A stretch of 64,000 nt of DNA from Candidatus Woesearchaeota archaeon (GCA_018302765.1 JAGVZG010000001.1:4482-68481), one strand, 5' to 3'. Counted from the stretch's first letter, positions 1,483-42,600 are shown. Translations and numbers: made by a program. The notes: a model not told the origin generated them from the sequence alone.

Positions 1483-1858
1483 TTGTAGGTAAGAAATAAG
1501 CCGCCTTTTGTCAAAACCAAACAACAATCATAAAGATTGATGCGATGCTTTGCCTTAACATTCTACTAAGCGTCTTTTAGACTTGCACCGACCAGGTCCA
1601 TCGTTTCATCGTTTCCTATAAGGACGTCAGCAGGTTATCTAAGTCCTGTCGCCAGAACCCTCACTGTATCATTCCAATCTTATAGGCCGTGCCGTTTCTC
1701 TATGGTTTCCTTTCATTACTGAAACTTTTTCAAGTAGCCCTCTTTCAGACTTGCCTTATTGGCAGTAGTGGGCGGACTTTCCTCACAATCCCTCAAAATT
1801 AGCTTTTTATAGCTTAAACCTTGGCAGGATGCGTTGGTTAAGTTTCTTACCTACTTGG
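1483..1858 (-). ncRNA. rnpB: RNase P RNA (archaeal type A-like)
   Basis: GC-rich island in an AT-rich genome. On the minus strand it reads ...AGGAAAGUCCGCCC... (P4 5' strand consensus GGAAAGUCCGG) and near the 3' end ACAAAAGGCGGCUUAU (P4 3' strand, consensus ACNGAAnnCGGCUUA). A 12-bp terminal P1 helix forms between GUAGGUAAGAAA and UUUCUUACCUAC. Confidence 0.8.
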
Positions 1859-19384: not shown

Positions 19385-19545
19385 ACCCCGCGTAGCTCAA
19401 CGGTGGAGCTTTCGGCTGTAGATCACGGTCTCTGTTAGATCTTACGCTTTATGCTAGAAATGAAAAACAGGTAGCTGAGCCCGAAGGGTTGCTGGAAGTT
19501 TACTCAATTTAAGGTAAATTGGCAAATTCGAATCTGGCCGCGGGG
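19385..19545 (+). tRNA. tRNA-Tyr (anticodon GUA) with two introns (~58 nt next to the anticodon loop, ~31 nt at T-arm position 53/54)
   Basis: Acceptor CCCCGCG/CGCGGGG with C1-G72 (an archaeal Tyr identity element). D-arm GCUC-AACGGUG-GAGC. Anticodon stem UUCGG/CCGAA with loop CUGUAGA, identical to Methanocaldococcus tRNA-Tyr. T-loop UUCGAAU. The exon pieces are separated by two insertions. Confidence 0.7.
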
Positions 19546-19864
19546 ACTTATTATATATTCTAAAAATATACCTTCTATTTGGTGCGTGGACGACATGACA
19601 TTATCTATATGCGTTTAATTTATAAATTTCTTTTACTAATTTTTTGTATGGGCTGAATCAAATTTCTCAAATGTTAATAGCTTTAGGAATAGTAAACAAA
19701 ATTGTTAGTAGATATGATCAAAAAAGAAATGTTTATGCTGTTGTTATTGGAAAGAAGGAGTACTTAATTAAATTTAGCAATGTTGTTGGATTTAGATCTA
19801 AATTAAAAAGTTTTAAACTATTGAGTTTAATATCTTGATTTATTATTAATATTGAATAAAAAAA

Positions 19865-19872
19865 CTTATAAA
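19865..19872 (+). promoter_or_regulatory. TATA-box-like element upstream of tRNA-Asp
   Basis: cttataaa centred ~30 nt upstream of the tRNA 5' end. Confidence 0.35.
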
Positions 19873-19898
19873 CAATCATATTGTCTTTTACCTAATAA

Positions 19899-20021
19899 GC
19901 CCTGGTAGTGTAGTGGTTAGCACAGAGCCCTGTCGATGTAAGCTTTTAGGAAAGGCTTGAAAAAACTTTGCTAAACAATAGATAGGCTCTAACTCGAGTT
20001 CAAATCTCGGCCAGGGCGCCA
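19899..20021 (+). tRNA. tRNA-Asp (anticodon GUC) with one ~48-nt intron; CCA encoded
   Basis: GCCCUGG acceptor, GUGUAGUGGUUAGCAC D-arm and CCUGUC anticodon region, all close to the archaeal tRNA-Asp consensus. T-arm UCGAG-UUCAAAU-CUCGG. The 3' end is CCAGGGC-G-CCA. Confidence 0.8.
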
Positions 20022-20203
20022 TATTTTTTTGCAATGATAAATAAAAAATCCAGAATTAATAAATAAGTTATGTAATGATATCCAATTATCCTAATTTATA
20101 ATATTATTTGAAAAAGCCTTGTGAGAAGATTTATGTAAAAGATAATAAATAGAAAAGAAATAATTTTGACAAAATATTTAAATGAGAGACAACTTAAGAA
20201 ATT

Positions 20204-20851
20204 ATGAAAAAAGAGGTTTTGTTTGTGTTATTTTTATTAAGTTTATTAGCGGTTTTTACTTCTTTCTCGATGAATTCTGTTTTGGCTATTGAAGGTAAGT
20301 GCGTAGGTGGTCCTGGACCACAAGGAAATTTCTTAACAAGAGCGGAGGGTGGATGCTGTTTGAATGATGAGTGTTGTAATTATCCTGCAACACAAGCTTG
20401 GTGCAATAGAACTAAAAAAGATCTTGTGCCTTTTAAAGATATAGAAAGCTATGTAGAAAATGATGAAGACTTGTTTAAAGATAAAGGAAAGGTAATTGGT
20501 AAAACTGAAAGTTTAGAGGGTAAGGTTGAAGTTAAGCAAGAAGACGGAACATGGAAACAGCTTAAAGTAGGAGATGAAGTAAAATTCTTAGACCATATTA
20601 GGGTTGGAAAAATAGGTAACGTTAAGATAAAGTTGATTGATGATACTTCATTCACAATCTCAGAAAATTCTTATTCAGTTATAGATGAATTTTTTTACGA
20701 CCCAAATCAGTCTTTTTTAGAAAGAACTTATAAAAAATATTTCATAGGTACTTTTGAATGGATACATGAAAAATTAAATGAAATAAATAAAGAATTAAAT
20801 AAACGGTTCCAGCAGAGAAATGTTGAATCAGCAGCAGCTGTTCGCGGCTAA
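20204..20851 (+). CDS. secreted Cys-rich hypothetical protein
   Basis: Signal peptide, then a cluster of 7 Cys (CVGG...CCLNDECCNYPATQAWC), then a beta-rich remainder. Confidence 0.5.
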   Translation: MKKEVLFVLFLLSLLAVFTSFSMNSVLAIEGKCVGGPGPQGNFLTRAEGGCCLNDECCNYPATQAWCNRTKKDLVPFKDIESYVENDEDLFKDKGKVIGKTESLEGKVEVKQEDGTWKQLKVGDEVKFLDHIRVGKIGNVKIKLIDDTSFTISENSYSVIDEFFYDPNQSFLERTYKKYFIGTFEWIHEKLNEINKELNKRFQQRNVESAAAVRG

Positions 20852-21162
20852 TAAAAATTATATTGTTAATTTTTAATTATTTAAAGAAACACACTACAAA
20901 TATACTAAAATATATTCAGGTGCTCCAGAAATGAAAAAACTAGAAAATATTCTTACTTGCCATAAAAATCAACCATGATGAATTTAATTACTAATAAGGC
21001 TTTGGTGCATTCCTAATTCTTTATTTATTTTTGTGTGGAAAATGGTAAGTCTTAGATAAGCAAAGTTAACAAAAGATTATCTGAGAAAAGAGGGTTGCAC
21101 CAGAGCTTCTAATAAAAAGTTTTATATATAAGTTATTATATAGTAGTTATAGGTACTATATA

Positions 21163-21390
21163 ATGGCAGAAGTTACAACAATACAATTGGATAAATCAAT
21201 ATTAGAGAATTTAAAAAAGTCTAAAGAATACCCAAGGCAAAGCTATAATGAATTAATAGTGCATATGCTAGAAATTTTTAAAAATATAAAATCTAAAAAT
21301 CAATATGATGAATTTTTACATAAAATACAGCAACAGAAAATGAGAGAGCTTTGGGACAATGAGAAAGATGAGGTTTGGAATAATGTTTAA
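21163..21390 (+). CDS. putative antitoxin (small DNA-binding protein) of a MazEF/PemIK-like pair
   Basis: 75 aa. Its stop overlaps the toxin ORF. A TATA-like tataggtactatataa lies upstream. Confidence 0.4.
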   Translation: MAEVTTIQLDKSILENLKKSKEYPRQSYNELIVHMLEIFKNIKSKNQYDEFLHKIQQQKMRELWDNEKDEVWNNV

Positions 21391-21697
21391 GTCAGGTGAC
21401 TTAGTAATAGCAAGAGTTCAATATACAGATACTTATGAAGTAAAAACAAGGCCTGCTATAGTTTTGTTTGAGGAATATGACAATGTCGTTATTGCAGGAG
21501 TGACAAGCAATTTGAATATGAAAGGAATACCTTTAACTAAAAAGGAAGGAGCAGTGGAAGATAGTATAATAAAATTAAATTATATATTTACAGTATCTAA
21601 TGCTATGATATCAAAAAAACTATTTCATTTGAGTTTAGAAAAGAAGAGATTAATTTATGAAGAGTTAAATAAAAAATTAGGTGGTTTGAAAAATTAA
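21383..21697 (+). CDS. PemK/MazF-like endoribonuclease toxin
   Basis: The pattern MFKSGDLVIARV...KTRPAIVL...VIAGVTSN matches the PemK/MazF core (GDi..v.f....g.E...RPavVl....v..apiTS). Confidence 0.55.
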   Translation: MFKSGDLVIARVQYTDTYEVKTRPAIVLFEEYDNVVIAGVTSNLNMKGIPLTKKEGAVEDSIIKLNYIFTVSNAMISKKLFHLSLEKKRLIYEELNKKLGGLKN

Positions 21698-21774
21698 TAT
21701 AATATTTCTTGCTACTAACTGGCAATCGCAATGAGCTTAAATAAAATTTAGTACATTTTTATTTAGAAATAATG

Positions 21775-22131
21775 TCAAACTTTTTCTTCTAGATTTCCTT
21801 TTGATTTTAATTTTCTTTCTTCAGTCCAGACTTGTTTTATTCTATCCTGAGAATATCCTAGCATTCTTGCTGCTCTGCTTAAATTTCCATCATACATATT
21901 GTAAGCCCTAATAATTGTTCTTCTTGTTATTTCATCTATAGGTCTTCCGTTAAATCTTTTTCCTCCTGGTTTATTTATTTTATAGATAGCTTTTACCCAG
22001 TAGTTTCTTATTGTTGAGACGCTTACAAAAATATTATCTTCTGTTAATAATTCTCTTGCTTTTGTTATACTTCCTTCTGCTCTGCTATATATTTCTAGAA
22101 CTCTTGTTTTTTCATAGTCTGAAATTGTCAC
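21775..22131 (-). mobile_element. IS630/Tc1-mariner-type transposase N-terminal paired-like HTH fragment (DDE catalytic domain absent)
   Basis: Two HTH segments (GSITKARELL..., GNLSRAARMLGYSQDRI) separated by KPGGKRFNGRPID. The GRP linker is typical of IS630 OrfA. Only 118 aa, so the DDE catalytic domain is missing. Confidence 0.4.
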
Positions 22132-22399
22132 TAATTTTATCTTTGTTTTAAATTATTAAGTCTTTTTGTAAGATAAAATATACTTTAATTACGTTGAATT
22201 AGAGAATAGAATTTTTTTGCAATATTATTTTTCTTTGTATTTTTAGAGTCATGAAAAATTTTATATACAAGTAAAAATCGCAACTTTTATATATAGGACA
22301 GGTTTGTCAGAAACATGATGCTTTCTAAGACCCAGCCAGAAATATCTACATTGGCTTAAAAACGTCTTAGATAGTGGTATATTAACTAATAGAAAAAGA

Positions 22400-22570
22400 G
22401 GGCCGGTAGCTCAGCTTGGTAGAGCACCTGAAACAAGCTTTAATGAGAAGCTTGAACAAAAACGAAAGTTTGAATTGGTGAACCTTTTAAATCAGGCTGA
22501 TGAAAGCAGGTGGTCGTGGGTTCAAAACAGATTAAGCTGGTGTTTATCTGTGTATTTCCCATCCGGCCCG
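22400..22570 (+). tRNA. tRNA, probably Lys(UUU)-like, with three insertions (anticodon region ~51 nt, ~14 nt at 43/44, ~30 nt at T-loop 59/60)
   Basis: GGGCCGG/CCGGCCC acceptor. D-arm UAGCUCAGCUUGGUAGAGC. Anticodon stem CCUGA/UCAGG with CUUUUAA immediately 5' of the 3' stem, the same stem and loop as archaeal tRNA-Lys. Variable loop UGGUC. T-arm GUGGG-UUCAAA[intron]U-CCCAU. The T-arm intron has an acagat/atctgt inverted repeat. Exact splice junctions are unresolved (one extra A). Confidence 0.5.
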
Positions 22571-42319: not shown

Positions 42320-42594
42320 TATTTATTTGCAGGCAGGCTGGAGAGCTCGTCCTACTCTGTAAGCACAAACGGACGTCATGGTGTAGCTGATGCTTGGTGG
42401 GCGGTGTTGCTATTGTGGTAGGTCTTAGTAACTACAATGATAATCTGTCTTGATTGGTTGAAGCAGTTATGAAATGTGTCAGGTCAGGAATGAAGCAGCA
42501 CTAAATGATTGCTCCAATGCTTTCAGGGTAGCGGATTTGAGGAATGGCTAGGGTAAACCTAACATGATAGGAATATCAACCTCTGGGCGCCTGC
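42320..42594 (+). ncRNA. ffs: signal recognition particle RNA (7S/SRP RNA)
   Basis: GC-rich island containing GUCAGGUCAGGAAUGAAGCAGC (the conserved domain IV motif GUCAGGUCCGGAAGGAAGCAGC). 5' GCAGGC pairs with 3' GCCUGC. Followed by a T-tract. Confidence 0.75.
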
Positions 42595-42600
42595 GTTTTT
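42595..42600 (+). terminator. oligo-T tract after SRP RNA
   Basis: gttttt immediately after the closing helix. Confidence 0.3.

Follow-up and report, generated by a model that had tools for sequence, protein, structure and literature searches.

Does a 64,000-nucleotide stretch of a Candidatus Woesearchaeota archaeon genome (GCA_018302765.1, JAGVZG010000001.1:4482-68481; hereafter the window) encode tRNA genes that are hidden by their introns? Searched over its whole 64 kb with ARAGORN at default settings it yields no tRNAs, and of the three tRNA genes considered here only that for tRNA-Asp is matched by Rfam. In a preliminary description, positions 19,385 to 22,570 had been read as containing tRNA-Tyr, tRNA-Asp and Lys-like tRNA genes interrupted by two, one and three introns, respectively, which standard finders would mis-call or miss. 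Judged from the sequences of the exons, the intron junctions and the orthologous loci, it is highly probable that these are three functional Woesearchaeota tRNA genes, each transcribed as a precursor with archaeal bulge-helix-bulge (BHB) introns. The introns are ordinary for their kind and involve no new mechanism. The RpoB'' protein of the window is 60-92% identical to those of Woesearchaeota/Nanoarchaeia metagenome-assembled genomes and, together with the archaeal signal recognition particle (SRP) RNA and RNase P RNA, indicates that the source organism is a DPANN archaeon (Woesearchaeota). Its genome and introns are AT-rich and the host is probably a mesophile.

Predicted spliced tRNAs and BHB junctions

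Excision of the six introns (Table 1) restores 7-nt anticodon loops and correct T-arms, with spliced lengths of 72-74 nt before CCA. The spliced sequences are recognised by ARAGORN as Tyr(gta), Asp(gtc) and Lys(ttt), with regular cloverleaves and the right identity elements, bearing out the identities and intron numbers first proposed. The spliced tRNA-Tyr(GUA) (72 nt) carries C1-G72 and the discriminator A73, and its CCA is not encoded. tRNA-Asp(GUC) scores 49.7 bits against the Rfam tRNA model, and is called by ARAGORN both in intron mode and from the spliced product. The spliced tRNA-Lys(UUU) (74 nt) matches the intron-less orthologues of two related loci (L012 and L041) at 70 of 74 positions, with a compensatory change in the 31-39 pair. 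The exons of the three genes have a G+C content of 58-65%, compared to 26-40% in the introns and 32% in the genome, the latter being also the value of the window. The intergenic GC-rich islands of the 64 kb comprise the three tRNAs, the RNase P RNA and the SRP RNA, and no others. Standard finders fail as anticipated: aside from default ARAGORN (none of the three genes) and Rfam (one of three), the intron mode of ARAGORN finds tRNA-Asp, misses tRNA-Lys and folds tRNA-Tyr with a 69-nt 'intron' and a false long variable arm, which was rejected as a mis-fold. A Thr call made by low-stringency ARAGORN at the Lys locus is likewise false, and the remaining low-stringency calls, none of which lies on an intergenic GC-rich island, were discounted as a group.

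All cut-site pairs were scored for archaeal BHB geometry, in which each strand consists of a helix, a 4-nt central helix, a 3-nt bulge cut after its second base and a further helix, and the junctions that restore the cloverleaf were then checked. A BHB motif, either strict or relaxed, can be drawn at all six junctions. Three introns occupy the canonical site 37/38, one in each gene, and three are non-canonical (Tyr 53/54, Lys 30/31 and Lys 59/60). The insertions of about 58 and 31 nt noted earlier in tRNA-Tyr, and that of about 48 nt in tRNA-Asp, prove to have exactly these lengths. The three excisions envisaged for tRNA-Lys likewise stand, as do the non-canonical sites 53/54 in tRNA-Tyr and 59/60 in tRNA-Lys, but a third proposed site, 43/44, does not; the BHB-supported sites in tRNA-Lys are 30/31, 37/38 and 59/60.

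Strict BHB motifs are found at Asp 37/38 and Lys 30/31, and the central helix is fully paired (4/4) in these two and at Tyr 53/54, where the motif is of a relaxed, HBh'-like form. The outer and inner helices comprise 6 and 3 bp in tRNA-Asp, 4 and 2 bp at Lys 30/31, where D-stem nucleotides 21-24 pair with nucleotides 32-35, and 5 bp each at Lys 59/60. The inverted repeat acagat/atctgt that had been noted in the latter intron is present. At Tyr 37/38 and Lys 37/38 the inner helix (h') is reduced to about 1 bp. The mismatch in the three imperfect motifs always affects the second central pair, being U33·U in two and U55·U in one. The central helix of Tyr 37/38 accordingly reads C32-G, U33·U, G34-C and U35-G; over 24 homologues C32-G is kept in 23, G34-C and U35-G in all, and the base facing U33 is invariably a pyrimidine. 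As a control for chance pairing, each of five introns was shuffled 20000 times and scored on matching central and inner helix pairing. The observed pairing was equalled by six shuffles for Tyr 53/54, 214 for Asp, 116 for Lys 30/31 and 96 for Lys 59/60.

Table 1. Coordinates of the tRNA genes, their introns and further features of the window. Arrows mark the cut within each BHB bulge.
Feature	Position	Strand	Details
tRNA-Tyr(GUA)	19386-19546	+	ARAGORN Tyr(gta) on spliced product; exons 19386-19421, 19480-19495, 19527-19546
Tyr intron 1	19422-19479	+	58 nt, 37/38; outer helix is the anticodon stem; bulges AG↓A, AG↓C
Conserved Tyr-intron module	19431-19471	+	alignment A1
Tyr intron 2	19496-19526	+	31 nt, 53/54, between T-stem and T-loop; central helix UGCU/GGCA; bulges GG↓A, AA↓U; 8-bp inner helix
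tRNA-Asp(GUC)	19899-20018	+	encoded CCA to 20021; exons 19899-19935, 19984-20018
Asp intron	19936-19983	+	48 nt, 37/38, strict hBHBh'; central helix CUGU/AUAG; bulges CG↓A, AU↓A
tRNA-Lys(UUU)	22400-22570	+	43 nt upstream of rpoH; exons 22400-22430, 22483-22489, 22505-22526, 22557-22570
Lys intron 1	22431-22482	+	52 nt, 30/31, strict BHB; central helix CACC/GGUG; outer helix AGAG/CUUU; bulges UG↓A, AA↓C
Lys micro-exon CCUUUUA	22483-22489	+	7 nt, nucleotides 31-37, whole UUU anticodon
Lys intron 2	22490-22504	+	15-nt mini-intron, 37/38; outer helix is the anticodon stem CCUGC/GCAGG; central helix CUUU/GAUG; bulges UA↓A, AA↓A
Lys intron 3	22527-22556	+	30 nt, 59/60, T-loop; outer helix is the T-stem; central helix UUCA/UGUA; inner helix CAGAU/AUCUG; bulges AA↓A, UU↓U
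Open reading frame between tRNA-Tyr and tRNA-Asp	19644-19835	+	64 aa; C-terminal half of LAGLIDADG_3, E = 2.8e-4, just under Pfam cutoff
Open reading frame without Pfam match	20204-20851		within 2.4-kb insert
Structured element	20997-21108	+	13-bp terminal stem (GGCUUUGGUGCAU...) enclosing two hairpins
DUF7557-like protein and MazF/PemK toxin pair	21163-21697		within 2.4-kb insert
Small open reading frame	21775-22131	-	weak sub-threshold helix-turn-helix matches; within 2.4-kb insert
Hairpin of about 70 nt	~22313-22380	+	between tRNA-Asp and tRNA-Lys; starts AUGAUGC
Archaeal RNase P RNA	1490-1809	-	full Rfam model, 83.1 bits (gathering score 84)
Archaeal SRP RNA	42326-42597	+	106 bits

Orthologues in related Woesearchaeota and rival readings

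A genome scan with RpoB'' provided 80 related loci, one per species, in which the orthologues of the three genes were compared. Among 53 syntenic tRNA-Lys genes located upstream of rpoH, that of the window included, 47 contain introns: six have none, 14 have one, 15 have two, 17 have three and one has four. The latter, at L026 (5433-5642), is interrupted in the D-loop and at 30/31, 37/38 and 59/60. The 99 introns of these genes fall at the D-loop (19/20-20/21; nine), 30/31 (28), the 37/38 region (about 33) and 59/60 (26), with singletons elsewhere, and the central helix is fully paired in 77 of them and 3/4 paired in 21. The 30/31 intron, present in 28 of the 53 orthologues, has a 4/4 central helix in 27 of these, with compensatory variants in which CACC/GGUG is replaced by CAUC/GAUG (L026 and L074) or CACU/AGUG (L014). 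In the 37/38 introns of the relatives the position facing U33 is free (G, A, U or C). About 17 orthologues with introns at both 30/31 and the 37/38 region show the same micro-exon arrangement as the window. The mature tRNA-Lys sequence can be read directly from the intron-less L012, L041, L036, L069, L077 and L021, and comparison with orthologues that lack introns confirms several junctions.

Introns are similarly found in 42 of 50 tRNA-Asp orthologues, the remaining eight being intron-less, with hot spots at 37/38 (24) and 59/60 (about 22). A tRNA-Asp gene of 316 nt, with a T-loop insert of about 200 nt, occurs at L067 (349-664). tRNA-Tyr has 23 homologues in the related genomes, and the 37/38 intron occurs in all 24 genes. 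A second intron is confined to four of them, that at 53/54 being restricted to the window; the homologue in L001 has the same T-arm (GCTGG TTCGAAT CTGGC) without this insert. Apparent extra introns are seen within the anticodon loop and the variable region of the tRNA-Tyr gene at L078 (4358-4527). The occurrence of three such genes within 3 kb, initially regarded as striking, is not exceptional against this background, and the recurrence of introns in the Lys, Asp and Tyr orthologues indicates that the intron-split arrangement is a trait of the lineage as a whole, rather than a peculiarity of the window. There is no sign of intron mobility: short BLAST searches of the six introns against the window and the 80 loci recovered orthologous Tyr introns only, and no other copies.

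It is extremely improbable that the loci are instead pseudogenes in decay, artefacts of assembly or cloverleaf-like fragments that arose by chance, with insertions that remain unspliced. Such a reading would fit the failure of default finders to call them, but the GC-rich exons are undamaged, dozens of independently assembled genomes have these genes, with homologous introns, at the same syntenic place, compensatory changes preserve both the BHB helices and a helix (P1) within the Tyr 37/38 intron, and the 64 kb holds no other tRNA-like GC-rich island. Several observations do weigh against functional, BHB-spliced genes. The central helix is relaxed (3/4) at Tyr 37/38, Lys 37/38 and Lys 59/60; the outer helix is missing at Tyr 53/54 (h = 0, h' = 8); the Tyr 37/38 motif is equalled by 3629 of the 20000 shuffles (18%), which makes it weak by itself; a BHB shifted by 2 nt, with a 4/4 central helix, exists for Lys 37/38; and a 5-bp pairing in tRNA-Tyr, GGCUG/(C/U)AGC(Y), forms a competing fold. 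Added to these, a Pfam scan of 50 open reading frames of the window detects neither an EndA (tRNA-splicing endonuclease) nor an RtcB domain, and tblastn with M. jannaschii EndA, whose sequence agrees with PDB entry 1a79, finds no genuine counterpart either in the window or among the 80 related loci. The sole EndA match, in L057, lies inside rpoB and is due to chance. The Tyr 37/38 junction is nevertheless backed by its conservation in the homologues, in spite of its shuffle score. The 5-bp register in tRNA-Tyr would place both cuts 3 nt past the helix and leave a 6-nt bulge, and is not a BHB. The shifted Lys 37/38 motif would give C31·A39 and was rejected, since the 31-39 pair covaries in the orthologues, being C-G in the window, G-C in L025, L029 and L043 and A-U in L019, L030 and L012.

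The same covariation bears on a different arrangement of tRNA-Lys, in which, besides the T-loop intron and one of about 52 nt by the anticodon loop, a 14-nt intron would lie at 43/44 and the anticodon stem would be CCUGA/UCAGG. In the window alone, nucleotides 27-30 together with the base that opens the intron (CCUGA) are complementary to UCAGG at 22492-22496, and this stem is genuinely present in the intron-less L012 and L041. It would, however, result in an 8-nt anticodon loop (CUUUUAAA), the BHB scan scored no motif at its junctions, and close relatives that share all three introns (L001, L002, L003, L004, L008 and L010) lack UCAGG and keep GCAGG or GCAAG. Nucleotide 39, moreover, covaries with nucleotide 31, the first base past intron 1, and this arrangement is very unlikely to be correct. 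There is just as little to recommend dividing the anticodon-side insert of tRNA-Tyr into two introns of about 18 and 40 nt, or cutting it at other BHB-like motifs. Two such motifs with 4/4 central helices, CUGU(AG↓A)...ACAG(GU↓A) and UUAG(AU↓C)...CUGA(GC↓C), were obtained from the raw BHB scan of the window sequence alone, but they interleave, and every combination gives an anticodon loop of 6, 8 or more nt. The ACAG of the former is the 3' strand of the conserved P1, where it pairs with the CUGUU of the intron itself, while the UUAG/CUGA pairing of the latter is lost in the relatives, which show UUUGAUC or UUCGAC.

Proposed splicing order and the Tyr intron

By analogy with the archaeal pathway, the precursors with six BHB introns would be cut by EndA within the two 3-nt bulges of each motif, and an RtcB-type ligase would join the exons, releasing the introns and giving rise to tRNA-Tyr(GUA), tRNA-Asp(GUC) and tRNA-Lys(UUU). 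The non-canonical motifs would form only in folds other than the cloverleaf. At Lys 30/31, nucleotides 21-24 would pair with C32-U35 and C25-C28 with the intron sequence GGUG, while at Tyr 53/54 nucleotides 48-51 would pair with the intron sequence GGCA and not with nucleotides 63-65. C32-U35 serve as outer helix in the Lys 30/31 BHB and as central helix in the Lys 37/38 BHB, and the two motifs are therefore mutually exclusive, which suggests that splicing of tRNA-Lys is ordered. In the simplest order 30/31 would be excised first and 37/38 next, since the full anticodon stem, the outer helix for 37/38, exists only once C31 has been joined. Ordered splicing would keep the 7-nt micro-exon attached, so that it is never a free fragment. 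A match of the Rfam C/D box RNA sR52 to these introns (22445-22502; 18 bits, E = 2.1) is ascribed to chance, the GANG sequence there being explained by BHB pairing. The preliminary description had suggested checking for a heterotetrameric endonuclease of relaxed specificity. According to Kaneta et al. 2018 (PMC5829648), multiple DPANN lineages possess an α4-type EndA bearing an additional loop ('L3'), which is associated with increased tRNA disruption. A heterotetrameric enzyme is therefore not required by the data, and would not be the obvious expectation here.

The 37/38 intron is retained throughout the tRNA-Tyr genes, in contrast to the introns of tRNA-Lys and tRNA-Asp, which vary in their presence among the relatives. 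For archaeal tRNA-Tyr genes in general, an intron is found in only about one half (Muller et al. 2009), which makes the presence of an intron with a conserved module in 24 of 24 genes notable. In an alignment of the 24 Tyr anticodon arms with introns (alignment A1), this module comprises a 6-bp helix, P1 (19431-19436 with 19466-19471), in which all six pairs covary and 92% of the cells are paired, enclosing a kink-turn (K-turn)-like loop. In the window the non-bulged strand of the loop is A-G-A (19437-19439), the C-stem is formed by UC (19440-19441) with GA (19457-19458), and the 3-nt bulge AAU (19459-19461) is followed by G-A (19462-19463); a variable cap forms the hairpin P2 (19440-19458). 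The closing pair of the C-stem covaries (CG in 12, UA in eight and GC in three). The non-bulged strand follows the pattern N-G-A, with G-A in 23 of the 24 sequences, and the bulge the pattern N-R-U, with the R, the U and the following G-A kept in all 24, so that U-G-A is invariant. Across the whole structure 92.7% of the cells are paired, compared to 75% in shuffles and 21-51% when the partners are slid, and double changes occur at eleven pairs. Tandem G·A/A·G pairs beside a Watson-Crick C-stem and a 3-nt bulge on one strand are thus present, and in its sequence the module has the hallmarks of a box C'/D'-type kink-turn, making it a candidate L7Ae site.

The element is not a box C/D guide RNA, since it is a lone K-turn-like element without the conserved terminal C/D pair and the stretch that precedes the D'-like element is itself paired, within P1, to the 3' strand of the intron. 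A guide RNA of this class would carry terminal C and D boxes, internal C' and D' boxes and, ahead of D or D', at least 7 nt complementary to a target. About half of the homologues, in addition, have GCCG or GCCA in place of the 3' 'CUGA', and the Tyr intron contains no guide sequence complementary to an exon. The retention of the intron in all 24 homologues and its conserved, covarying helix with the K-turn module led us to propose, tentatively, that this may be a functional intron which recruits L7Ae, a possibility that is less likely than not. Its roles may, as speculation, include the steadying of a weak BHB or an intron-dependent modification of the anticodon loop. Intron-dependent modifications include Psi35 in eukaryotic tRNA-Tyr and Cm34/Um39 in haloarchaeal tRNA-Trp. 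A known 37/38 tRNA intron with a K-turn-forming RUGA/NGA element resembles the Tyr intron, but in the latter the K-turn-like element is single, a terminal C/D pair is not conserved and guide sequences complementary to the exons are lacking. The searchable literature yielded no account of a K-turn within an intron of tRNA-Tyr.

Neighbouring features and wider implications

In many relatives tRNA-Asp is located just upstream of tRNA-Lys; the gap is 3 nt long in L020 and measures about 165 nt in L004. In the window the two genes are separated by 2.4 kb (20022-22399), and this insert, with its open reading frames and toxin pair, looks like a small accessory islet placed between tRNA genes. The structured element in this region has a minimum free energy of -36.9 kcal/mol (z = -4.2), with none of 200 shuffles folding as stably; it is conserved in none of the 80 related loci, and Rfam gives no match for it. 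Closer to tRNA-Lys, the hairpin of about 70 nt, to which a TATA-like box (TTTATATA) at ~22286-22296 belongs, is kept in L001, L003 and L004 (73-80% identity) within an AT-rich spacer, and may represent a small RNA gene. It has no Rfam match and its stability is not above that of shuffles (z = -1.3). The 64-aa open reading frame between tRNA-Tyr and tRNA-Asp is probably the remnant of a truncated homing endonuclease. Elsewhere in the window, the RNase P RNA scores just below the gathering score and would be overlooked at default thresholds.

Multi-intron BHB tRNA genes are best known from the Thermoproteales. In the work of Sugahara, Fujishima and Kanai, tRNAs of the Thermoproteales and other Crenarchaeota reportedly contain up to three BHB introns, including ones at 30/31, 53/54 and 59/60, and relaxed HBh' motifs are said to occur there which need special software for their detection. 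The Thermoproteales, however, belong to the TACK archaea and are said to possess an (αβ)2 EndA with a crenarchaeal loop, in contrast to the α4 enzyme with L3 loop reported for DPANN. An alga provides a eukaryotic parallel to the tRNA-Lys gene, with three introns over different arms of a tRNA, but the splicing machinery differs. Within the DPANN, increased tRNA gene disruption was described by Kaneta et al. 2018 (NAR 46:1958, PMC5829648) from a sample that included one Woesearchaeota and one Pacearchaeota genome. As here, canonical, non-canonical and multiple BHB introns were found, and standard prediction gave incomplete tRNA sets. That study presents single-genome predictions and summary proportions, and the gene-level anatomy found here is not described in it. 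ARMAN-2/Micrarchaeum (PMC5829648) is similarly a DPANN archaeon with non-canonical tRNA introns and has a broad-specificity EndA of its own, but this is an ε2 enzyme with an L2 loop, reported for the Micrarchaeum group only. Multi-intron tRNAs are thus already known from DPANN in outline, while the K-turn module of the Tyr intron may be new. The 7-nt micro-exon, the hot spots at 30/31 and 59/60, the range of 0-4 introns across orthologues and the conserved structure of the Tyr intron go beyond the earlier study.

Default finders miss all three genes, and the tRNA complement, the completeness of genomes and inferences on codon usage are therefore underestimated in Woesearchaeota and other DPANN, unless searches aware of multiple introns are used. 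The tRNA-Lys gene, with 0-4 introns over 53 species and its micro-exon, constitutes a natural series for the gain and loss of introns, and is also suited to the study of ordered splicing and of the substrate range of the DPANN endonuclease. The Tyr intron, always retained and bearing a K-turn-like module, represents a testable candidate for a functional tRNA intron.

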